A stretch of 11,433 nucleotides of DNA from Opitutales bacterium (GCA_024407725.1 JAKSVZ010000021.1:1-11433); one strand, 5' to 3'. Shown: positions 1 through 11,345, counted from the stretch's first letter. Notes: generated from the letters alone by a model not told the origin. Numbers and translations are program-made.

Positions 1-221
1 TCAAAGGTATCACGATGGGGATACGCATCTAGGATCTTAAACGCACGTAGGTTTTCTACACAACGTGCTTCATATGCATCGTAATTTTCTTTGGTCAACC
101 GATGCTTATCATGTTCAATGCACCACGCCATATAACGGTTAATATCCGGATGATAATGGGCATGATCGCAGTAATTCGCTAGATTACTAACAAAAGCACA
201 ATCATGCCAACCGTAGATTTT
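1..221 (-). CDS. 3' continuation of the DltD-like gene in the -1 frame. It is partial and runs off the window start.
   Basis: I hand-translated the minus strand from 221 downward. It is open to the window edge: KIYGWHDCAFVSNLANYCDHAHYHPDINRYMAWCIEHDKHRLTKENYDAYEARCVENLRAFKILDAYPHRDTF. The frame opens immediately after a stop at 222..224. It joins the 179..1120 frame if one extra A is read in the A6 run (T6 on the plus strand, 218..223). It contains a D-x-x-H motif (Asp 165..167, His 156..158), as expected near the C-terminus of SGNH/DltD-like enzymes. Confidence 0.5.
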
Positions 222-1120
222 TTAACATTTGGGAGATCAGCACAGGCAGTTACCAAGTGGCGCCAATCAAAGAAGAAAGCATGATACATCTGATAAGGAG
301 TATAGGTGATAAGATTTTGACGAGGTGCACGTTTATAGGATATCCAGCTGTTAGGAGGCATCATTAGATAAAATTTGACCTCTGGATTATATCGAAAAAT
401 TTTCAATAAATCGTTGAATCGTTGAATTGAACATTGAACATCAATACGAGTATATTGACTAAAATCCGGTATGGATCGCCTTAGTTTTGATAAGTTTTGA
501 GGACTTACCCAAGAAATAAAACCATTTTCTTTACGCCAATACCAATTACGGATATTGTCTAAAGTGCACCATGTATGGAATATGGGATTATCCAAGCTAA
601 ATCCTCGCGAAACCCTATAACATGGGAAAATGCTGCGTAAACATTCTGATGAAGTAACGCACAACCATGGACGCTTCATGATTGGGATCGTTCTCATTAA
701 TTGTGTTTTATCATTAACACTTGACCAATAAAAACAAGCATCTATGACGAAAAAAACATATCTAAGTTTACCAGTGGTAATACATTGACGTGCATATTCG
801 CATCCTAAAGGCAATCCTTGATCGCTACTGCTCAACTTCAGTACCCCTTTAGCCCCTACCGCTTTAGCTAGGTCAGTACCTTTGAAGTTCATCGTGTGCG
901 AAGAACCTACCAGAATACTATCGTAATCATTACTTCTTTTGAGGTAGGTTTCGATTTGACCTAAGTTGATTAAAGTTTGACTACCAAACCATAGGTTTTT
1001 GTTCCACCGCGTCTCATGAAAAATATGGTACGGATCTACCATATAGACCATCAACGGCCCTATCGTCCAAAATAGGAATGTACAAAGAAGAAAATACAGG
1101 ATGTTGCGGCGTGAGGGCAT
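179..1120 (-). CDS. Membrane-anchored DltD-like / SGNH-like putative O-acyltransferase partner of the MBOAT. As encoded it appears truncated by a frameshift.
   Basis: This is the track ORF 179..1132. I prefer the ATG at 1120 (MPSRRNILYFLL...) over the TTG at 1132. The N-terminus is hydrophobic (ILYFLLCTFLFWTIGPLMVYMV), consistent with a single TM anchor. A G-S-S-H motif (nt 896..907) sits about 75 aa in, comparable to the GSSE serine motif of DltD. The gene lies 26 nt downstream of the MBOAT stop. The encoded C-terminus (STVGMIVLLLVI*) follows a homopolymer and looks out of frame. The family assignment comes from architecture and motifs only. Confidence 0.55.
   Translation of the reverse strand: MPSRRNILYFLLCTFLFWTIGPLMVYMVDPYHIFHETRWNKNLWFGSQTLINLGQIETYLKRSNDYDSILVGSSHTMNFKGTDLAKAVGAKGVLKLSSSDQGLPLGCEYARQCITTGKLRYVFFVIDACFYWSSVNDKTQLMRTIPIMKRPWLCVTSSECLRSIFPCYRVSRGFSLDNPIFHTWCTLDNIRNWYWRKENGFISWVSPQNLSKLRRSIPDFSQYTRIDVQCSIQRFNDLLKIFRYNPEVKFYLMMPPNSWISYKRAPRQNLITYTPYQMYHAFFFDWRHLVTACADLPNVKKSTVGMIVLLLVI
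1080..1111. repeat. Left arm of a 32-nt perfect inverted match, within the coding N-terminus of the DltD-like gene
   Basis: gtacaaagaagaaaatacaggatgttgcggcg (1080..1111) is the exact reverse complement of 11387..11418. Confidence 0.9.
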
Positions 1121-1146
1121 GATGAAATGCAATCCCTACACAGGCA

Positions 1147-2598
1147 TTAAAACTGCCAATACAGAAATTCTGCTTGGCTTGCTTTATTTACAATGTGCAT
1201 CCACAAAAACATAAAGGTTCCCCAGAGGAGGATAGTTTTGTACCAAAAAGGACGTAAAAAACGGTCGCATAGTTGTTTTGAGCTGTTAAACAAAACACAC
1301 AAGGCCAAGAGAATTCCTACGGTTATTACAAACCTACCAGCTAGTATGTTATCCATTAAAGCTCCCCATACCTCACTTTTTACAACGCGTATCGTTTTAT
1401 CCGACAAATCGACATTAATGAGCGATTTAATATAAAAGACGTTAAACATCTTCTTTAAAATCGCACAGGCATCTTGAACGGAGTTGGCTCGAAAGAACAC
1501 CCAAGCGATGTTGACGAAATTGAATGTAATCAACCAACTTAAAAAGGTGTTTAATTGATAACCTGTCTTAGTCCACAAACGATGAATAACGCTTGCTATT
1601 CCGTGTAACCCTCCCCAAATAACAAAGGTCCATCCTGCCCCGTGCCAAATACCTCCAATTAAAAAGGTTAGGAATAAATTAACGCACGTACGTGATAAGG
1701 CGCAATGGCTCCCGCCTAAGGGGATATAAACATAGTTTTTCAACCAAGTGGATAGGGTCATATGCCAACGACGCCAAAAATCTTGTATACTTAACGCTTG
1801 ATAAGGAGAATTGAAGTTTTCAGGCAGGCGAATACCGAACAACAATCCGCTTCCAATAGCCATATCAGCATAGCCGCTAAAATCAAAATAGAGTTGTAGC
1901 GTATAACCTATACTGGCTGTCCAAGCACCCAAAAACTGGAGTTGATCAATGGCTCCGTAACATTCATTTACATAGCCTGCTAGGGTATCGGCCAACATTA
2001 CTTTTTTGAACAAACCAAAAATAAATAGGCTTAATCCTTGGTACATGGCGTCCCAATTGACCGTTTTTTGAGCCTTAAATTGGGGAACCATTTCTTGATA
2101 ATGCACAATCGGTCCAGCGATCAATTGAGGGAAAAAGATTACAAACAGTACATATTCCAAAAAGCTGCAAGGTGCTGCCAAATGTTTATAGGCATCAACC
2201 AAATAAGCTATTTGTTGAAAGGTATAAAAGCTAATACCCAAGGGCAGAATGATTTTTGCTAACGCCCAGTGAGTACCCAACAAAGCATTACAGTTTTCGA
2301 TAAAAAAATTGTAGTATTTAAAATATCCCAATAACGCAACATTAGCCCCTACACCGAGCATCAATAATACGGTTCGACGATTCTTTTTCAGTAACGAATT
2401 ACCAATACAAAAGTTAACGCTTGCGGACGCGAGCAATAAAAAGAAAAACTTCCAATTCCACGTGATGTAAAAGACCGCTGATGCAACCAACAAAACGGGA
2501 ACAGACCATCCTGTTTTATGCTTTGCAATAGCTAACCAATACACAATTGCCGTAAGGGGCAATAGGCACACGAAATACCAAGGATCACAAAATAGCAT
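1147..2598 (-). CDS. MBOAT-family membrane-bound O-acyltransferase (AlgI/DltB/PatA-like)
   Basis: The 483-aa ORF is polytopic and hydrophobic. It has the hallmark MBOAT block FWRRWHMTLSTWLKNYVYIPLGGS, followed by GGIWHGAGW containing the conserved His. The N-terminus is AlgI-like (MLFCDPWYFVCLLPL). Confidence 0.9.
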   Translation of the reverse strand: MLFCDPWYFVCLLPLTAIVYWLAIAKHKTGWSVPVLLVASAVFYITWNWKFFFLLLASASVNFCIGNSLLKKNRRTVLLMLGVGANVALLGYFKYYNFFIENCNALLGTHWALAKIILPLGISFYTFQQIAYLVDAYKHLAAPCSFLEYVLFVIFFPQLIAGPIVHYQEMVPQFKAQKTVNWDAMYQGLSLFIFGLFKKVMLADTLAGYVNECYGAIDQLQFLGAWTASIGYTLQLYFDFSGYADMAIGSGLLFGIRLPENFNSPYQALSIQDFWRRWHMTLSTWLKNYVYIPLGGSHCALSRTCVNLFLTFLIGGIWHGAGWTFVIWGGLHGIASVIHRLWTKTGYQLNTFLSWLITFNFVNIAWVFFRANSVQDACAILKKMFNVFYIKSLINVDLSDKTIRVVKSEVWGALMDNILAGRFVITVGILLALCVLFNSSKQLCDRFLRPFWYKTILLWGTFMFLWMHIVNKASQAEFLYWQF

Positions 2599-2611
2599 AA
2601 TACTTTATGTT

Positions 2612-2743
2612 TTATCCTCTTTTAAAAATTGCTTTAAAAGCTCGAACAATAGTGTTTCTAAACACAAAACCTAGGGTTACGAAACCGGCAACAATAGCTC
2701 GGATAATGATAGTGGTTAAACCTGCATCCAAATAAGCAATCAT
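2612..2743 (-). CDS. Microprotein P1 (43 aa), single-TM, MIAYxD family
   Basis: Hand translation gives ATG (2741..2743) to TAA (2612..2614): MIAYLDAGLTTIIIRAIVAGFVTLGFVFRNTIVRAFKAIFKRG. It ends 13 nt upstream of the MBOAT ATG. It aligns without gaps to P2 and P3. It is not in the ORF track because it is under 60 aa. Confidence 0.6.
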   Translation of the reverse strand: MIAYLDAGLTTIIIRAIVAGFVTLGFVFRNTIVRAFKAIFKRG

Positions 2744-2747
2744 AAAT

Positions 2748-2891
2748 TTATTTTTTTGATGTAAATACTGACCGTAGCCCCTTAAAACATGAACTGATTG
2801 TATTACGCAGGAAATATACTGCTGTCAAAACACAACCAACAACCGCTTGGATAATAAATCCACCTAAAGAAAAATCAAAATAGGCTATCAT
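2748..2891 (-). CDS. Microprotein P2 (47 aa), single-TM, MIAYxD family
   Basis: Hand translation gives ATG (2889..2891) to TAA (2748..2750): MIAYFDFSLGGFIIQAVVGCVLTAVYFLRNTISSCFKGLRSVFTSKK. Its stop is 4 nt from the P1 ATG. The first codons differ from P1/P3 only synonymously (ata/att, gcc/gct). Confidence 0.6.
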   Translation of the reverse strand: MIAYFDFSLGGFIIQAVVGCVLTAVYFLRNTISSCFKGLRSVFTSKK

Positions 2892-2899
2892 ATTAATTA

Positions 2900-3043
2900 C
2901 TATCCTTTCTTAGTAAATAATTGTTTAAAAAACAGAAACGCTTTTTTTACAGAACTCCTACAAAAAACCAATGCAGTAGTGGCGGTAACAACGACTGTTT
3001 GAGTAATAAGAGAAGCTACCCCTCCATCGATATAAGCAATCAT
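2900..3043 (-). CDS. Microprotein P3 (47 aa), single-TM, MIAYxD family
   Basis: Hand translation gives ATG (3041..3043) to TAG (2900..2902): MIAYIDGGVASLITQTVVVTATTALVFCRSSVKKAFLFFKQLFTKKG. Its stop is 8 nt from the P2 ATG. Its start is 45 nt downstream of the CofE-like stop. Confidence 0.6.
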   Translation of the reverse strand: MIAYIDGGVASLITQTVVVTATTALVFCRSSVKKAFLFFKQLFTKKG

Positions 3044-3088
3044 AATTAAAACTCAAAGGGCAGAATAGGCTAAAATCAAGCCAAAAAT

Positions 3089-3802
3089 TTACTGTAAAAG
3101 TTCCAATAAGGGTTGATATAAATCCTCGTGCGGATCGATACACAAATCTTCCGCTGAGTGCGTTTGTTGGTCAAAGACAATGTGAGGAATATCGGTTACA
3201 ACAGCTAATGGGGTGCATTCCGAACTTTCTCCCATAGTTAATACGGCACTAACAGCCAACGCATCCCCTAGGTTAATACTGGTCACCTTTAACGGACGGC
3301 CGAACAAATCTGGGTGTCCAATATAGCTAACAACTGGATTAAATCCCCACCATGCAAGTGCAATACCGGTTACCCCTCGTCTAAGGGGGGTTGTGTGGCT
3401 ATCGGTGATCAATACCCCACATTCTTTAAGATGATGGTGCTGCACTAAGTGAGTATAAATCCTGCAAGCGGATTGAAAGGGGTCTTGGGGATAGAGGATA
3501 TAATATCCATTGCCATTCGATTCATCAATACCGGCTGATGGAATCAACAGGTGATGCTTATAGGTCAACACAATGTCGTGTTCTTTCGTGGGAGTCGCCA
3601 ATACACGATCAGCCTCGCGTTCAATGAGTTCAGTTTTTGAAATGGAATTTTGGGGAACCACCCGTCCTTCGCATACACTAACGACTTTGGAGGTAATAGC
3701 CACAACCGAGCGTTCAGGAAGCGTTGGTAAAAAGCGATCGATAAATGCTTCAATCGATTGGCATTCGCTCACACGCTCTGTTTTAATAGCCTCAATACGC
3801 AT
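3089..3802 (-). CDS. folC2: CofE-family (F420-0:gamma-glutamyl ligase-like) protein, likely the alternative folylpolyglutamate/dihydrofolate synthase of chlamydial type (FolC2)
   Basis: CofE-family blocks are present: SKVVSVCEGR, PSAGIDESNG, ITDSHTTPLRRGVTGIALAWWGF, DALAVSAVLTMGE. It sits directly after folKP and overlaps it, as with C. trachomatis CT611 next to its folate genes. The start is either ATG 3802 (11-nt overlap) or GTG 3808 (17-nt overlap, the track start). Confidence 0.75.
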   Translation of the reverse strand: MRIEAIKTERVSECQSIEAFIDRFLPTLPERSVVAITSKVVSVCEGRVVPQNSISKTELIEREADRVLATPTKEHDIVLTYKHHLLIPSAGIDESNGNGYYILYPQDPFQSACRIYTHLVQHHHLKECGVLITDSHTTPLRRGVTGIALAWWGFNPVVSYIGHPDLFGRPLKVTSINLGDALAVSAVLTMGESSECTPLAVVTDIPHIVFDQQTHSAEDLCIDPHEDLYQPLLELLQ

Positions 3803-5096
3803 ACCCACCTGCTAACCATTGTTGCGCAACCAACGCACGTTGATGTAATGCAACATTATGAATGCGAATGTAGTCTACTTGATGGCGTAAGGCAAGCGAA
3901 ATGGCAACCGTTTCCGCATCCCGCTGCGATGCTTCCTGAGGACTAAAAGCATTTAGGTAGCTCTTTCGGGAATGGCCTAAAAGCGTTGGACATCCTGTTT
4001 TAGCAGCCCATTCCCCATATCGTTGCAACAACTCCTTTGTTTGGTAAGCGCTTTTCCCGAAACCAATCCCAAAATCTAAAATAATCTTATCGGTTGAAAA
4101 CCCTAGGTGGATTAGCCGCTCCACCTGCTGAGTACTCCAATCGATTAACGTTGGATTCAAGTTACGTAGGCATTCATTGTTTTTTACAGGAACCGACAAA
4201 GCATGCATGATGCAAACGGAGCACCCTTGGTTGGCAATAATGTGCAAAATTTCGTCTGATAATAGGTGTGGGAAGGTATTAATCCAAGCGATAGGATACT
4301 GTTCTACGAGTTGCTTAATAACGGGTGCTTGGAAGGTATCGATACTCACCGTAACTTCATCAAAATTCAGCCTATCCAAAACCGGTTTTAGGCGCTTCCA
4401 TTCTTCTTCGGGGGCAATTTGAACCCCATCGGGTCTCGTGGATTGCGCCCCTATGTCTACTATAGTAGCGCCTTCTTGTATCAATTGATGGCAACGCGCA
4501 ACCGCGGCATCAGGAGTAAACGATAATTCTCCGTCCGAAAACGAATCGGGGGTAACGTTGACAATGCCCACACAGCGCGGTTCAAGGACGAACGAACGGA
4601 TAAAGGGAACCTCAGGGCGTAGTATTTGGGTGGCTAGTTCCGCAAACGAGCCCTGTGTTTTGGGGTCTGTGCCGTCTGGGTTCATCAAGGCCATTAAATG
4701 CGCTAAAAACCAACGGTTATAAAGGCCAGAATGAGGAATGCTCAGCTGTTCGCTTTGGATACACTCGTTATCATACAACACGATATCTAGATCTAAGGTT
4801 CTGGGGCTCCAACGCTCATGGTTTGGATCGCGCCCCGCTTGCTGTTCAATGGCCTTTAACCGTGCTAGCAGGGCATAAGGATCCAAATCCGTTTCTCCGC
4901 GAACAAGGGCGTTTAGGTAGGGTCGATCCCAATCGGCTGGGGAATTGGGCAATACCAAGGCTGGGGTTTCTAGTACAATGGAAGCAACTACGTTTTGTAA
5001 AACACCTGCCTTCAAGCAATCAATTCCCTGATGCAGATAAGCTAAGCGGTTCCCAAGGTTAGAACCTAAGGCAATATAAACGGTATGCATCGGCAT
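3792..5096 (-). CDS. folKP: Bifunctional 6-hydroxymethyl-7,8-dihydropterin pyrophosphokinase / dihydropteroate synthase (HPPK-DHPS fusion)
   Basis: The N-terminal half has HPPK motifs (VYIALGSNLGNR, RWSPRTLDLDIVLY). The C-terminal half has DHPS motifs (GIVNVTPDSFSDG, DIGAQSTRPDG, LLGHSRKS). The ATG overlaps the upstream stop in TAATG (5094..5098). Confidence 0.92.
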   Translation of the reverse strand: MPMHTVYIALGSNLGNRLAYLHQGIDCLKAGVLQNVVASIVLETPALVLPNSPADWDRPYLNALVRGETDLDPYALLARLKAIEQQAGRDPNHERWSPRTLDLDIVLYDNECIQSEQLSIPHSGLYNRWFLAHLMALMNPDGTDPKTQGSFAELATQILRPEVPFIRSFVLEPRCVGIVNVTPDSFSDGELSFTPDAAVARCHQLIQEGATIVDIGAQSTRPDGVQIAPEEEWKRLKPVLDRLNFDEVTVSIDTFQAPVIKQLVEQYPIAWINTFPHLLSDEILHIIANQGCSVCIMHALSVPVKNNECLRNLNPTLIDWSTQQVERLIHLGFSTDKIILDFGIGFGKSAYQTKELLQRYGEWAAKTGCPTLLGHSRKSYLNAFSPQEASQRDAETVAISLALRHQVDYIRIHNVALHQRALVAQQWLAGGYAY

Positions 5097-6577
5097 TAAA
5101 AGTTTACGTTACGCATATCACCGGTTGTTTGATACGCCTGATATAAAGCAAAAACATTGGATAGATTGTGGCCGATATGCCCCTGTTGAGCTTGCTTTAA
5201 ATACGCTTGCAAGATGGGTCGATAATCAGGATGAGCACAAGCAATCATAGCCTTGGCGCGTTGCTCGGGTGATTTTCCGCGTAAATCTGCGCAGCCGTAC
5301 TCAGTGACAATGATTTGGGTATCGTGTTCGGTATGGTCGATATGCGAACAGAAAGGAACGATATTAGAAATAGCGCCTGATTTAGCGGTTGACGGGAGGG
5401 TAAATACCGATAAGAAGCTGTTGCGTGCAAAATCTCCAGATCCCCCAATACCATTGACCGCCTGAGTACCCTGTACATGCGTACTATTTACGTTTCCAAA
5501 CAAATCTACCTCCAAGGCCGAATTAAAGGATAATAACCCAAGGCGTCGAATCACTTCAGGATGATTGCTAATTTCCTGAGGACGTAAAACTAATCGATTT
5601 TGATAACAACTCCAGTTGGAATACAGTTCCTTTTGATAGCTATCGGTTACATAAATTCCACAGGTACTGATAAAGCTAATCTTCCCTTGTTTCATCAATT
5701 CAAACACAGCATCTTGAGCGATTTCGGTATATACTTGGAAGGTTGGTATGGCAGGATTCGCACCCATAACTTTTAAAATAGCGTTCGCTATGTTGCCAAT
5801 ACCCGATTGCACAGGCAAAAATGATTGCGGAATACGCCCCACTTGCATTTCTTGCTGTAAAAATTCAACAACCCGTTCCCCAATGCGTTGATAAACGGTA
5901 TCAATGGGTTTAAACTCTGGGTTTTGCTCGCCCTGATAGGTCTCCACCACCCCTAGGATTTTTTTGGGATCTACCGTTAGCTGCGTTGTTCCAATCCGGT
6001 CGCTGGGTTTAGTAACAGGGATGATGTCATACGGCGGATAACGATTAGGTTCGTAAATATCATGAATCCCCTTTAGCGGAGCATGATAGGGATTGTGCTC
6101 TAAGATAATATGCTTTGCACACTGACAAAAGGTAGGGGTTGCTCCAACCGACGCTGTTAATGTCAGCTGTCCATCGGGGGTATAATCTGCTACTTCGACC
6201 AACGCATAATCAAGAGGTCCCATAATGCCGCTGCGTATACTTTGCGGGAAGTGCGACAAATGCTCCTCGCGATACGCAACGTTTCCTTGATTGATGGCGG
6301 TACGCATCGCAGGATGCGATTGATAAGGGGCTCGGTAAGTAACCGCTTGGGCTTGAGTCAGAGCCCCATCTACCGCTTCATGGGAAGAAGCACCGGTTAA
6401 TAGATGAATACTGAAAGCTTGGCCTTTCTGATGCAATTCAGTTGCACGCTTTGCCAAAGCTAACGGAATACTTTTGACGCTACCGGCACTTGTGAATCCG
6501 CTACATGCAACCCAAGCCCCATTGGGGATGAAGGCAGCCGCTTCGTCGGCCGAAAGAATAGGAAACACAGAAGCCAT
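5096..6577 (-). CDS. Acetyl-CoA hydrolase/transferase family enzyme, succinate/acetate CoA-transferase type (ScpC/YgfH/AarC-like)
   Basis: The 493-aa ORF is colinear with my recollection of E. coli YgfH. Shared blocks include SGFTSAGSVK, LLTGAS, YRAPYQ, DPKKILGVVET, LPVQSGIGNIANA, LRPQEISNHPEVIRRLG, NGIGGSGDFARN and IVTEYGCADLRG. Confidence 0.88.
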   Translation of the reverse strand: MASVFPILSADEAAAFIPNGAWVACSGFTSAGSVKSIPLALAKRATELHQKGQAFSIHLLTGASSHEAVDGALTQAQAVTYRAPYQSHPAMRTAINQGNVAYREEHLSHFPQSIRSGIMGPLDYALVEVADYTPDGQLTLTASVGATPTFCQCAKHIILEHNPYHAPLKGIHDIYEPNRYPPYDIIPVTKPSDRIGTTQLTVDPKKILGVVETYQGEQNPEFKPIDTVYQRIGERVVEFLQQEMQVGRIPQSFLPVQSGIGNIANAILKVMGANPAIPTFQVYTEIAQDAVFELMKQGKISFISTCGIYVTDSYQKELYSNWSCYQNRLVLRPQEISNHPEVIRRLGLLSFNSALEVDLFGNVNSTHVQGTQAVNGIGGSGDFARNSFLSVFTLPSTAKSGAISNIVPFCSHIDHTEHDTQIIVTEYGCADLRGKSPEQRAKAMIACAHPDYRPILQAYLKQAQQGHIGHNLSNVFALYQAYQTTGDMRNVNF

Positions 6578-6686: not shown

Positions 6687-7763
6687 ATGGCTCACATCGA
6701 TTACAACAACTTTCAGCTCAACAATGCATTTAATGTTAACGACATTAATGGGGTCAACGACCAGAATCAGCAGCTTCAACCCCTCGAAGAAACCTATCAG
6801 GAATTAAAAAACCTATGGGATAATTTGCCTCAAGGGGATAAGGCTGTGTTAAACAACAACGTTCAGGAACGGTTTGATGGCGTCTTACGGAATTTGAGGA
6901 ATGCAATTGATACCCTTCAAAGGGCTATCCAAGACGGTCAACCGCAAGCAATTATTGATCAGAAACAACGAGAAGCAGAGGCTGCGAAGCAAGCTGCTAT
7001 AACTGTGTTTAATGGAAACGCTCAAACGATTGGGTTAAACAAGTGCATTGAGGTGGGACATTTCTTGGCTGAAGTACCCTATGATGAGTTAAAAGACCTA
7101 TGGGATCATGCCCCTCAGGACGTTAAAGATGCGTTAGGAGGCAAGTTCCAGGAGTTCGTAAATGAAAAGTTGAACGACCTAAAGGACGCAATGCAAAGGT
7201 TGGAAGCGGCTCTAGAAAGAGGAGCGTCTCCAGATGAAATAGCCATATTGCAGGGAGAAATTGAAAACCTACAGAAACAATTAGAAGGGGCTTTAATCGA
7301 GGGCGACCATTCGATCGATTTAATTGCGCGATACCAATTACTGGAAGAGATTATCAATAATCCCGGTGATTATGAGGTAGAAGATTACAATTCCCTGATC
7401 AATCAGTTGAAAGACCCAAATAATACAGCAAATATAGTCACGTGGGAACAAAGAATAGAGGATGCAAAAAATAGGCATTCAGCTGTTGTACATCAAAACG
7501 TTGAGAAAGCTCTGAATGAAAACCTGAAACAAGCGCAACACAGTGTTATCATCAACAAAAACAGTAAGAATGCTAAGAAGATTAGAGATTTAATGGCGAA
7601 TGCGTCGGATGCCTTGCTTAAGGCAGAAATGGAAAAGGATAAATATCAAGAGGAGCTATCTAAACTTAACGATACTGTGAAAAAAGTATATGAAGAAGGC
7701 TCTTGGCGCCCCAAAACAGCACAAGAGATGGCAGAAGCAGAGGCAAAGAAAAGATTGTTGTAA
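6687..7763 (+). CDS. Acidic coiled-coil protein with an internal duplication, a candidate type III secretion substrate
   Basis: The 358-aa ORF has no signal peptide or TM segment. Its N-terminus is polar and N/Q-rich (MAHIDYNNFQLNNAFNVNDINGVNDQNQQ). The body is heptad-like and rich in E/K/Q/L. It ends 13 nt before a T3S class I chaperone gene. I recognise no family. Confidence 0.6.
   Translation: MAHIDYNNFQLNNAFNVNDINGVNDQNQQLQPLEETYQELKNLWDNLPQGDKAVLNNNVQERFDGVLRNLRNAIDTLQRAIQDGQPQAIIDQKQREAEAAKQAAITVFNGNAQTIGLNKCIEVGHFLAEVPYDELKDLWDHAPQDVKDALGGKFQEFVNEKLNDLKDAMQRLEAALERGASPDEIAILQGEIENLQKQLEGALIEGDHSIDLIARYQLLEEIINNPGDYEVEDYNSLINQLKDPNNTANIVTWEQRIEDAKNRHSAVVHQNVEKALNENLKQAQHSVIINKNSKNAKKIRDLMANASDALLKAEMEKDKYQEELSKLNDTVKKVYEEGSWRPKTAQEMAEAEAKKRLL
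6795..6947 (+). repeat. Internal protein repeat unit 1 (aa 37-87) of the 358-aa protein
   Basis: YQELKNLWDNLPQGDKAVLNNNVQERFDGVLRNLRNAIDTLQRAIQDGQPQ aligns without gaps to aa 132-182. By hand, 19 of 51 positions are identical. Confidence 0.7.
7080..7232 (+). repeat. Internal protein repeat unit 2 (aa 132-182) of the 358-aa protein
   Basis: YDELKDLWDHAPQDVKDALGGKFQEFVNEKLNDLKDAMQRLEAALERGASP. The shared core is Y-x-ELK-x-LWD-x-x-PQ-x-x-K-x-x-L...QE.....L..L..A...L..A...G. Confidence 0.7.
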
Positions 7764-7776
7764 AAAGTAGAAAACT

Positions 7777-8238
7777 ATGGCTGATTTTGCATCTTATATT
7801 ACCCAGTATGGCAAAAGTGTTGGGTTGCCCGAACTAAAGTTCAATGAAGCGGGCATGTGCTCCCTAACGTTTGATGGTAAAATTGCAGTTGATATTGTCT
7901 ACCATAAGGATGTGGATCAGTGCGCGTTTGTATCGGTTGTAGGAACCCTGCCCAGCGAAAACCAAGAGGAATGCTTTAAACAACTGTTGATTTCCAATGC
8001 CTACGGGACGGAAAACAAGGGGGCAAGCATCGGTATTGAAGAATCCGAAAATCGGATTATTTTAAGTTACGTTTTTATCCCCAGCATTGTTTCGTTTGAC
8101 CTATTTAAAACCCTATTGGGCAATTTTGTTACGTTAACCGAAAAATGGCAGGGTCAGTATGAAAGCCTTTTAGGCTCCTTGGGTTCCTCTGAATCAACGG
8201 AAAGTGTCCCGAATCCGTTTGAATTTACACGCATTTAG
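7777..8238 (+). CDS. Type III secretion class I chaperone (CesT/SycE/Slc1-like)
   Basis: The protein is 153 aa and acidic. It follows the canonical pattern: N-terminal 'LPELKFNEAGMCSLTFDGKIAVDIVY', then 'CAFVSVVGTLP', 'LLISNAYG...GASIGIEESENRIILSY', then 'FDLFKTLLGNFVTLTEKW'. Overall it resembles my recollection of chlamydial Slc1 (CT043), including a flexible S/G-rich tail. Confidence 0.72.
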   Translation: MADFASYITQYGKSVGLPELKFNEAGMCSLTFDGKIAVDIVYHKDVDQCAFVSVVGTLPSENQEECFKQLLISNAYGTENKGASIGIEESENRIILSYVFIPSIVSFDLFKTLLGNFVTLTEKWQGQYESLLGSLGSSESTESVPNPFEFTRI

Positions 8239-9812: not shown

Positions 9813-10064
9813 ATGGAAAATATTGAGCAAAGAGTAAAACGTGTTGTTTGCGATAAGCTTCGTGTAAATATGGAGCAAGTTACCTATGAGGCTTCTTTTA
9901 AAGATGACCTAGGAGCTGACTCACTGGATCAAGTAGAACTTGTAATGGGTTTGGAAGACGAATTCAAGGACGAGCTTAAAGGCGATATCGCGGCTGAAGA
10001 TGCTGAAAAAATCGATACAGTCGGTAAGGCAATCGAATATATTTCCAGCAAGGCTGGCAAATAA
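9813..10064 (+). CDS. acpP: Acyl carrier protein
   Basis: The protein is 83 aa and acidic. It has the phosphopantetheine attachment motif [19 protein letters not shown] (Ser codon 9921..9923). It lies directly upstream of fabF. Confidence 0.95.
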
Positions 10065-10088
10065 GCCTTCATTATCATTGTTTCGGCA

Positions 10089-11345
10089 ATGAAACCCAAC
10101 CAAGAGGTGCGAGTCGTTGTCACGGGATTAGGAACCATTAATCCATTGGGGCATACGATCAACGATTTTTGGAACGCGTTACTCACAGGACGTTCCGGAA
10201 TTCGCAAGGTGTCGCACTTCGACGTATCTGAATTACCTACTCAAATTGCAGGAGAGGTTGTTGGCTTTGATGCGTCTCGTTATATGGACGCTAAAGAAGT
10301 AGGACATACGGATCCCTGCACTCAATTTGCTTTGGCAGCATCGCAATTAGCTTTCGAAGATGCTCAATTGCACATTTCAGATGCTGAATCCGATCGCTGC
10401 GGCGTCATCATCGGCACGGGCATCGGCGGAATGCGAAGCATCCAAGAGCATTCCTTTACCTTATTTTCTAAAGGTGGCAAGCGCCTATCCCCTTTTACTA
10501 TTCCTTCGGTTATCTGCAATATTGCTTCTGGAAAGGTAGCTATTGCCTTAAATTTACGCGGTCCCAATTTCGGTGCCGTTAGCGCCTGTGCTTCCGGAAC
10601 CCATGCTATTGGTGAAGCATTTCATTGGTTAAAAACCGGAGCAGTCGATGTTATGTTGGCGGGAGGCAGCGAAGCCCCCATTGAACCGTTAGGATTTTGC
10701 GGCTTTTGCTCCATGAAAGCCATGAGTACCCATTTTAACGATTGCCCAGAAAAGGCCAGTCGTCCCTTCGATGCCAAACGCGACGGCTTTGTTATGGGGG
10801 AAGGAGCCGGCGTTCTGGTTTTAGAAACCTTAGAACATGCCCAAAAACGAGGCGCTAAAATTTATGGTGAACTTTGCGCCTATTCAGCTTCTTGTGACGC
10901 ATTCCACATTACCCGCCCAGAACCTTCAGGACGAGCTCTGATCCACTGCTTCCGTTCGGTATTAGATACTTCGAATACACAGCCAGAAGCGGTAGATTAC
11001 ATCAACACGCATGGTACCTCTACCTATTACAACGATTTGCTAGAAACAACCGCCATTAAAGCTGTTTTTGGAACCCACGCTCAAAAGCTCAATATCAGTT
11101 CGACCAAATCCATGACCGGTCACTTATTGGGAGCAGCAGGCGGTGTAGAAGCGATTGTTACCGTAAAAACGATTGAAACCGGTATTATTCCTCCAACCAT
11201 TAACTACGAAAACGCCGATCCACAGTGCGACTTGAATTATACTCCTAACAAAGCTGTTAAACGCCCTGTTCAAGTGGCTATATCGGATAATTTAGGCTTT
11301 GGCGGACAAAATGGTGCGTTGCTGTTTAAAGCTTTTTCAGACTAA
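10089..11345 (+). CDS. fabF: 3-oxoacyl-ACP synthase II (KAS II)
   Basis: The protein is 418 aa. It has VVVTGLGTINPLG, the active-site Cys in AVSACASGTHAIGEA, and the His residues in INTHGTST and TGHLLGAAG. The C-terminus is GFGGQNGALLF. Confidence 0.95.
   Translation: MKPNQEVRVVVTGLGTINPLGHTINDFWNALLTGRSGIRKVSHFDVSELPTQIAGEVVGFDASRYMDAKEVGHTDPCTQFALAASQLAFEDAQLHISDAESDRCGVIIGTGIGGMRSIQEHSFTLFSKGGKRLSPFTIPSVICNIASGKVAIALNLRGPNFGAVSACASGTHAIGEAFHWLKTGAVDVMLAGGSEAPIEPLGFCGFCSMKAMSTHFNDCPEKASRPFDAKRDGFVMGEGAGVLVLETLEHAQKRGAKIYGELCAYSASCDAFHITRPEPSGRALIHCFRSVLDTSNTQPEAVDYINTHGTSTYYNDLLETTAIKAVFGTHAQKLNISSTKSMTGHLLGAAGGVEAIVTVKTIETGIIPPTINYENADPQCDLNYTPNKAVKRPVQVAISDNLGFGGQNGALLFKAFSD

Follow-up and report, generated by a model that had tools for sequence, protein, structure and literature searches.

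The window, by which we mean the whole stretch of DNA analysed, is an 11,433-nucleotide (nt) contig deposited as "MAG: Opitutales bacterium" (GCA_024407725.1, JAKSVZ010000021.1:1-11433; locus tags MJ218_), i.e., it comes from a metagenome-assembled genome (MAG). In positions 1-3043, five genes run in the same direction along the minus strand: three small open reading frames (ORFs), the gene of an acyltransferase of the MBOAT family, and a 317-amino-acid ORF for a membrane-anchored protein that we call the partner. The genes are spaced 4-14 nt from one another, and 45 nt separate the string from an upstream cofE-like gene. An earlier, sequence-only reading had described here three peptides beginning MIAYxD, an MBOAT and an anchored protein with a GSSH motif, and had likened the set to the membrane half of the Dlt pathway (DltX, DltB, DltD). 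All of these genes are present on the minus strand as it described them, and our analysis likewise favours an acyl-transfer pair acting outside the cytoplasm, although most likely one of the PatA/PatB or AlgI/AlgJ kind rather than the Dlt kind. Related loci are referred to below by L numbers and individual peptide homologues by P numbers.

The MBOAT gene (1147-2598, minus strand) encodes a protein of 483 amino acids with the PatA/AlgI-type layout of a core followed by a C-terminal extension. It matches Pfam PF03062 with 125.8 bits (cut-off 27; E=3e-36), and its best named relatives, both in NCBIfam and among PDB sequence matches, are DltB proteins. Its score against the DltB equivalog model TIGR04091 is, however, 168 bits, well under the cut-off of 375, and solved DltB structures cover only residues 117-349. 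Past this DltB-like core, the hydropathy profile, which uses sequence only, has maxima at about residues 413-437 and 449-473. His319, in the motif GGIWHG (codon 1642-1644), aligns with the WHG motif of DltB, and a second conserved histidine, His279, lies in the motif RWH (codon 1762-1764). Both histidines were kept in all of the MBOAT homologues compared (10 of 10).

The MBOAT's C-terminus reads …QAEFLYWQF, and its last six residues (478-483; 1150-1167, minus strand) fit exactly the FxYxxF pattern of the acyl-shuttle motif, which makes Tyr480 (codon 1159-1161) the predicted acyl-tyrosine site. The form F[LI]YW[QN]F recurs in the seven orthologues with an intact C-terminus (L001, L003, L004, L009, L011, L013, and L014), and the tail of the MBOAT at the distant locus L036 reads FIYFQF. 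The MBOAT of L015 has an altered C-terminus at the 3′ end of its gene. Anderson et al. (PMC12148441) describe an invariant tyrosine of DltX within a C-terminal FXYXXF "acyl shuttle" motif, and report that other bacterial MBOAT pathways have no DltX-like microprotein and instead carry the same motif at the MBOAT's own C-terminus, on two extra transmembrane helices. In their work PatA auto-acetylated the motif tyrosine from acetyl-CoA, and PatB accepted an acetyl-tyrosine hexapeptide as donor. Because FLYWQF is fused to the MBOAT of the window, neither DltX nor DltA or DltC is to be expected, and we found no DltA or DltC, be it in the window or at a related locus. The sequence-only reading had noted that no DltA/DltC equivalents are adjacent and had for this reason left the donor unassigned; PatA/AlgI-type systems normally do without a ligase and carrier and draw on acyl-CoA. 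By analogy with these systems, the donor here would be an acyl-CoA, most simply acetyl-CoA. What looked like an orphaned half of a Dlt pathway thus becomes a recognisable PatA/AlgI-type acyltransferase, and the absence of a ligase and carrier is no longer puzzling.

True Dlt-type D-alanyl transfer, with a DltA-like ligase and a DltC-like carrier encoded elsewhere in the genome, was weighed against this. The DltB matches of the MBOAT are consistent with it, as are the nearest solved structures of the partner, which are DltD (see below), and an acyl carrier protein gene within the window (9813-10064). However, this gene, the sole PP-binding gene of the window, lies beside FabF and has the ordinary DSLD motif of AcpP; the DltB model is missed by a wide margin (168 against 375 bits); the MBOAT has a C-terminal extension and a fused shuttle motif that are absent from DltB; and neither the window nor any of the related loci encodes an adenylation enzyme. 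Diderm Verrucomicrobia would not be expected to have teichoic acid. We consider D-alanyl transfer of the Dlt type highly improbable.

The partner gene (179-1132, minus strand) begins 14 nt downstream of the MBOAT gene. Its 317-amino-acid ORF comprises an N-terminal transmembrane anchor, the motif GSSHT at residues 76-80 with Ser78 at codon 899-901, and a helical insert, and ends in about 12 residues that are out of frame following a frameshift. Three-frame translation restores a C-terminal block of 73 amino acids (1-221, minus strand) that runs off the window at base 1 and contains CDHAH, a Block V-like D323-x-x-H326 in which Asp is encoded at 165-167 and His at 156-158. That this DxxH motif lies out of frame had been claimed from the sequence, and alignment of the DNA with L001 and L002 bears the claim out: a run of A residues (218-223, minus strand) reads GTTAAAAAATC in the window versus GTCAAAATC in these orthologues, and this +2 insertion places the block containing Asp323 and His326 out of frame relative to the intact genes of L001 and L002.

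Neither Pfam nor NCBIfam has a match for the partner protein, nor did 16 close members of its family match Pfam, and PDB sequence and profile searches with the partner gave only chance-level matches, DltD not being found. A word-indexed search retrieved just 21 relatives. An exhaustive profile search found 2,497 clusters (at 50% identity) at E≤1e-3, of which 1,691 reach E≤1e-10. In an alignment of 99 diverse members, His326 is invariant and conservation reaches at least 90% at Gly76, Ser78, Asp323, Tyr321, Asn302, and Pro260. An early serine and a late Asp-x-x-His constitute the canonical SGNH order of Blocks I and V, in terms of the Block definitions given in PMC9487903, where the AlgX/DHHW families are described as circularly permuted (H-S-G-N, with a DxH or DHHW motif). 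An AlphaFold2 (AF2) model built from the 99-sequence alignment (predicted local distance difference test score [pLDDT] 89.9; predicted template modelling score [pTM] 0.90) contains five β-strands, the third and fourth of which are separated by a large helical insert, and GSSHT follows strand 72-76 in it, as the Block I serine follows the first β-strand. This model superseded an earlier one from 16 sequences (pLDDT 66), whose Foldseek matches were weak. Against the PDB, the top five Foldseek hits of the new model were all DltD (3bma, 6pfx; best E=0.019, with probabilities of 0.66-0.93), and GDSL/SGNH hydrolases came next. Among solved structures, DltD is thus the nearest to the partner model, though the matches are weak, and going by architecture and the nearest fold to its model we call the partner a DltD-like SGNH-type protein.

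The partner gene directly follows the MBOAT gene in eleven loci (the window, L001, L003, L004, L009, L011, L013, L014, L015, L036, and L037), and we take the partner to be the mate of the MBOAT because of this adjacency, which includes L036, where the partner has diverged to about 26% identity and still stands directly after the MBOAT. Two of these loci, L004 and L036, sit among sugar-nucleotide and glycosyltransferase genes. Since relatives lie inside polysaccharide-synthesis clusters, the acceptor is most likely a surface polysaccharide or a lipopolysaccharide (LPS)-type glycan. In L014, from a Puniceicoccales MAG, two partner-family genes stand in tandem directly behind the MBOAT (3013-4224 and 4228-5202), an arrangement that parallels AlgJ and AlgX behind AlgI.

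The motifs, the adjacency and the fold agree with the proposal, already part of the sequence-only reading, that the MBOAT and the N-anchored Ser/Asp/His protein form an extracytoplasmic acyl-transfer pair. By analogy with described systems, we conclude that the locus probably encodes a pair of the MBOAT–SGNH type that acts as an extracytoplasmic O-acyltransferase, in all likelihood for acetyl groups, and is PatA/PatB- or AlgI/AlgJ-like rather than Dlt-like, and we put the probability of this at about 0.72. In such a system, the MBOAT would take an acyl group from cytoplasmic acyl-CoA, and its His319, together with His279, would esterify its own Tyr480, which lies in the FLYWQF tail, on the outer side of the membrane. 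The anchored partner would then move the acyl group onto Ser78, acting with Asp323 and His326, and from there to a hydroxyl of an envelope glycan. If so, the partner family, which combines a canonical Ser…DxxH order and a DltD-like fold with the lack of any Pfam or NCBIfam model, would add a class of SGNH-type partners to the MBOAT–SGNH scheme.

Several observations weigh against this conclusion. The partner model resembles solved folds only weakly (TM-score about 0.38, Foldseek E about 0.02), and no sequence profile links the partner family to DltD (PF04914) or to any Pfam SGNH family. A Pfam scan of the 99 members gave one weak match to DUF1574 (1/99; E=0.0014) and one weak match to ALGX (1/99). 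Alignment of sequences by hhalign against four DltD structures covered the Ser/GSS block alone, with a probability of 4.7%; with no profile match and this value, membership of the partner in the Pfam DltD family was rejected. No oxyanion-hole residues (Blocks II and III) were identified, and the 99-sequence alignment has no clear conserved Asn after strand 3. Both donor and acceptor are proposed by analogy. An array of three to four peptides with an invariant tyrosine at the predicted outer face stands before the MBOAT in three genomes, which could reflect a functional link. Finally, the partner gene adjacent to the MBOAT is frameshifted in this very contig.

The last point raises the alternative that the module is decaying or already inactive here, the partner gene being a true pseudogene and the locus either a relic or one that is served by unlinked paralogues. 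The +2 insertion, seen against two orthologues, cuts off Asp323 and His326, and the partner copy of the window may thus be inactive. Broken genes also occur in related MAG loci: the MBOAT is split into two pieces in L009 (4520-5990) and L013 (4526-5990), the partner lies in three pieces in L010 (5995-7087), and one of the peptide genes (C, see below) is frameshifted in L001. However, the window comes from a single MAG assembly, in which a homopolymer error is possible, the MBOAT and all three peptide ORFs are intact, and the C-terminal block past the frameshift is still perfectly conserved. We therefore regard decay of the module as possible, if doubtful. The split and frameshifted genes of the related MAGs represent either assembly error or ongoing decay in reduced genomes.

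Genes of the partner family are present in multiple copies: four partner-family proteins are encoded in this MAG, and UBA3869 has five loci. Most of these paralogues are "orphans" with no MBOAT nearby; in L005, for example, the partner gene lies between ftsQ, at the end of a murC/B-ddl-ftsQ cluster, and a family 2 glycosyltransferase (GT2) gene (L005 7189-10244; L002 1261-3456). About 3.4 kb downstream of the orphan partner, there is a second β-ketoacyl synthase–acyl carrier protein (KAS-ACP) gene pair, which is distinct from acpP-fabF. The copies at L001 8001-9191 and L002 1261-2373 are paralogues of one sample and probably of one genome. Approximately their first 30 and last 90 codons share 97-100% nucleotide identity, while the central ∼270 codons share 5-45% identity at the protein level. 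The loci with this pattern also include L006, L007, and L008 of UBA3869. Among orthologues of different genomes, the protein sequence of the C-terminal block is kept and the synonymous sites differ (84% nucleotide identity). Identical ends around a diverged core suggest, at the level of sequence, gene conversion of the ends around a hypervariable core. A single MBOAT probably serves several partner paralogues, and acceptor-specific transferases would then dock on it through identical anchors. The pattern hints at recombination-driven diversification of the modification of surface glycans.

The three small ORFs upstream of the MBOAT gene encode microproteins that we designate A, B and C, all on the minus strand. 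Microprotein A (2900-3043; 47 amino acids, MIAYIDGGVASLITQ…KKG, beginning MIAYIDGG…) has orthologues in P0022/P0023, L001 6071-6214 and L037 5537-5677. Microprotein B (2748-2891; 47 amino acids, MIAYFDFSLGGFIIQ…SKK, beginning MIAYFDFS…), which is preceded by an AAGGA Shine-Dalgarno-like sequence, is the copy nearest to the family consensus YIDPGLGGLxVQ…YFFRN and has orthologues in P0035 and L037 5854-5997. Microprotein C (2612-2743; 43 amino acids, MIAYLDAGLTTIIIR…KRG, beginning MIAYLDAG…) has orthologues in P0048, P0052-P0056 and L037 6001-6132, and a frameshifted copy at L001 6382-6517. All three begin MIAY[IFL]D and match the family profile with E values of 1e-19 to 1e-22 (A, 1.3e-21; B, 4e-22; C, 2e-19). 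The 5′ ends of their genes form a 57-nt direct repeat, 65-70% identical, that recurs roughly every 150 nt. Together with the profile scores and with the recurrent arrays and charge layout described below, this repeat indicates that the ORFs did not arise by chance. None of the three peptides matched a Pfam or NCBIfam model, and nothing relevant to a YIDPG/YLDPG motif was found in the literature. In the peptide region, no promoter-like or terminator-like sites rose above the shuffled expectation, and there was no match to Rfam.

Each peptide has one hydrophobic stretch, an N-terminus with a net charge of −1 and a C-terminal tail of +5 or +6, and by the positive-inside rule this bias predicts an N-out, C-in orientation. 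Independent support for an extracytoplasmic N-terminus comes from relatives (P0072, P0076, P0103, P0123, and P0140) that have a signal peptide ending in AxA right before YIDPG. After cleavage at AxA, these mature relatives would begin at or beside the invariant tyrosine. The N-out topology that had been predicted for the peptides is thus supported, and so is the conservation of Tyr4, which is invariant in all peptide homologues. Both Tyr4 and Asp6 are invariant in 28 aligned homologues and in the copies of L037; P0039, the sole homologue with Ala at the Asp position, was left out of this alignment. A peptide array stands directly upstream of the MBOAT in three genomes (the window, where the distance is 13 nt, L001, and L037), consisting of A, A′, and the frameshifted C in L001 and of four copies (A, A′, B, and C) in L037. 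Outside these three genomes, the expected conservation of the peptides along with the MBOAT is not borne out, as no family member lies beside the MBOAT and partner pair in L003, L009, L011, L013, L014, L015, or L036. A 33-amino-acid ORF before the MBOAT of L036 was considered as a peptide homologue and proved unrelated. In Puniceicoccales, there is one peptide copy 5.7 kb away within the same polysaccharide cluster.

The idea put forward from the sequence, that the peptides are DltX analogues of inverted topology, would have the MBOAT acylate Tyr4 on the outer side, from which one or more DltD-like proteins would take the acyl group, with the three to four copies each perhaps serving one of the four to five partner paralogues. 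The invariance of Tyr4 and Asp6 agrees with this, as do the N-out orientation backed by charge bias and by the AxA-YIDPG relatives, the array 13 nt before the MBOAT in three genomes, and the closeness of the peptide copy number (three to four) to the number of partner paralogues. However, the MBOAT already carries the full FxYxxF motif in its own FLYWQF shuttle tail, which PMC12148441 showed to be sufficient in PatAB, and the peptides have no FxYxxF. Seven loci with MBOAT and partner have no peptides beside them, and most occurrences of the family are more than 5 kb from any MBOAT, in the company of methyltransferase-like and sulfatase-type genes. As equivalents of DltX the peptides are thus not upheld, and a role for them as tyrosine shuttles is unlikely.

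The wider distribution of the peptides points to another role. A search that started from an alignment retrieved 391 relatives, which share the consensus (A)YIDPGxG(G/S/A)L…Q…F(F/Y)(F/L)(R/K), and in L017-L035 there is no MBOAT or partner homologue within 5 kb of the peptide gene. Recurrent neighbours are instead a ∼465-amino-acid protein with a weak C-terminal S-adenosylmethionine (SAM)-methyltransferase domain, membrane proteins that either belong or come close to the sulfatase superfamily or are polytopic, and sometimes a formyltransferase-like protein. Loci with this set of neighbours include L019 (5001-8265), L025 (5001-8127), L017/L028, L030, L034, and L018; an IpgD-family gene is also present in L018. 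The peptide, methyltransferase-like and sulfatase-type genes are an uncharacterised conserved gene set. We conclude that the peptides are a distinct, undescribed microprotein family of envelope-modification loci that has been amplified before the MBOAT in one genus-level clade, and that they would most likely be small accessory subunits of membrane enzymes that modify the envelope. The family ties an invariant Tyr and Asp at the predicted outer face to such loci.

Two further explanations for the peptides were weighed. In the first, YIDPG microproteins would be widespread N-out, tyrosine-bearing adaptors or group-transfer shuttles for extracytoplasmic envelope enzymes, serving MBOAT–SGNH pairs in this clade and sulfatase-superfamily or methyltransferase-like sets in others, and would here couple one MBOAT to four to five cassette-like DltD-type transferases, with gene conversion keeping the ends of the transferase genes alike as the cores diverge. 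If true, host-associated Verrucomicrobia would thereby have a programmable set of acylations for their surface glycans; we rate it a long shot, marginally less probable than the shuttle role just discussed. The second holds that the peptides are precursors of the ribosomally synthesised and post-translationally modified peptide (RiPP) type, or small hydrophobic toxins, that merely happen to be placed before the MBOAT. Several diverged tandem copies with a conserved N-terminus would suit such a role, as would the methyltransferase-like gene that is the commonest neighbour elsewhere. However, the most conserved parts are the transmembrane-like hydrophobic core and the basic tail, with no leader and core layout, and no RiPP maturase or antitoxin-RNA signal was found at the loci examined. 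In L025, moreover, the peptide gene is co-directional with the directly downstream methyltransferase-like gene (∼475 amino acids) and overlaps it by 4 nt, with a sulfatase-family gene next. Precursors or toxins are thus very improbable here.

The sequence-only reading had placed the locus in a chlamydia-like genome, and this does not hold: the deposited label is Opitutales, and all related loci found come from Verrucomicrobia, Opitutales or Puniceicoccales. In a scan of the GTDB species representatives, relatives of the partner protein were found solely in MAGs of these groups. The chlamydia-like look probably traces to three neighbours, namely a folKP fusion, a folate glutamate ligase of the TIGR04132 type, and a CesT chaperone, genes that are neighbours of the locus and carry no taxonomic assignment. 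The folate glutamate ligase gene (3089-3808; 296 bits, under the cut-off of 350), the HPPK-DHPS (folKP) fusion (3792-5096) and an acetyl-CoA hydrolase/transferase gene (5096-6577), all on the minus strand, overlap by 1-17 nt and lead on, without a change of strand, into the string of peptide and MBOAT genes. An acetyl-CoA hydrolase/transferase thus stands at the head of a series of genes at whose end there is an MBOAT that probably uses acetyl-CoA, which may be coincidence. On the plus strand, a gene at 6687-7763 encodes a 358-amino-acid, Gln/Asn-rich, coiled-coil-like protein without a family match and is followed after 14 nt by that of a CesT-family type III secretion chaperone (7777-8238; Pfam E=1e-13). 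The two resemble an effector-chaperone pair in an Opitutales MAG, and their synteny is retained in L001 and L037. The acpP-fabF pair spans 9813-11345 of the window.

Comparison with known systems places the locus among MBOAT pathways as follows. With DltX/DltB/DltD, the membrane half of teichoic acid D-alanylation, it shares the gene order of small membrane peptide, MBOAT and N-anchored Ser…DxxH protein. Among solved structures, DltB comes closest to the MBOAT and DltD to the fold of the partner, and the same logic of acyl-Tyr followed by acyl-Ser would be expected. However, the shuttle motif is carried by the microprotein in Dlt and forms part of the MBOAT itself here, and the peptides of the window, with no FxYxxF, have the opposite topology, basic tails, and residue 4 as their only invariant tyrosine. 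DUF1574 (PF07611), which PMC9487903 lists as an SGNH family without assigned function, is matched weakly by one of 99 partner members (E=0.0014), but no meaningful threshold would admit this match, and neither the protein of the window nor its close relatives match the family.

The O-acetylation systems for alginate, for cellulose and for secondary cell wall polysaccharide (AlgI/AlgJ/AlgX, WssH/WssI and PatA1/PatB1, respectively) likewise combine an MBOAT with one or more periplasmic SGNH-like transferases. Their AlgX/DHHW-type partners (AlgJ, AlgX, WssI, and PatB1) are permuted, with DxH/DHHW motifs (PMC9487903), in contrast to the order Ser78 … Asp323-x-x-His326 in the window, and the window locus has no AlgF-like gene. 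In the AlgI system, a single MBOAT can work with both AlgJ and AlgX, two SGNH-like proteins, and the loci are embedded among polysaccharide genes, as they are here in relatives of the window. PatA/PatB, the peptidoglycan O-acetyltransferase of Gram-negative bacteria, differs in that the partner of the window falls outside the PatB family (DUF459), as outside any other Pfam family, contains a large helical insert and is nearest, among solved structures, to DltD; there are also several partner paralogues per genome and an array of three to four microproteins upstream of the window-type MBOAT. The likeness to PatA/PatB (PMC12148441) nevertheless extends to both proteins: an MBOAT of about 460-480 amino acids that has a conserved His, two further C-terminal helices (in the window predicted from hydropathy) and FxYxxF as its last residues, the lack of DltX, ligase and carrier, and, encoded directly downstream, a partner with one N-terminal transmembrane anchor and a Ser/His/Asp triad.

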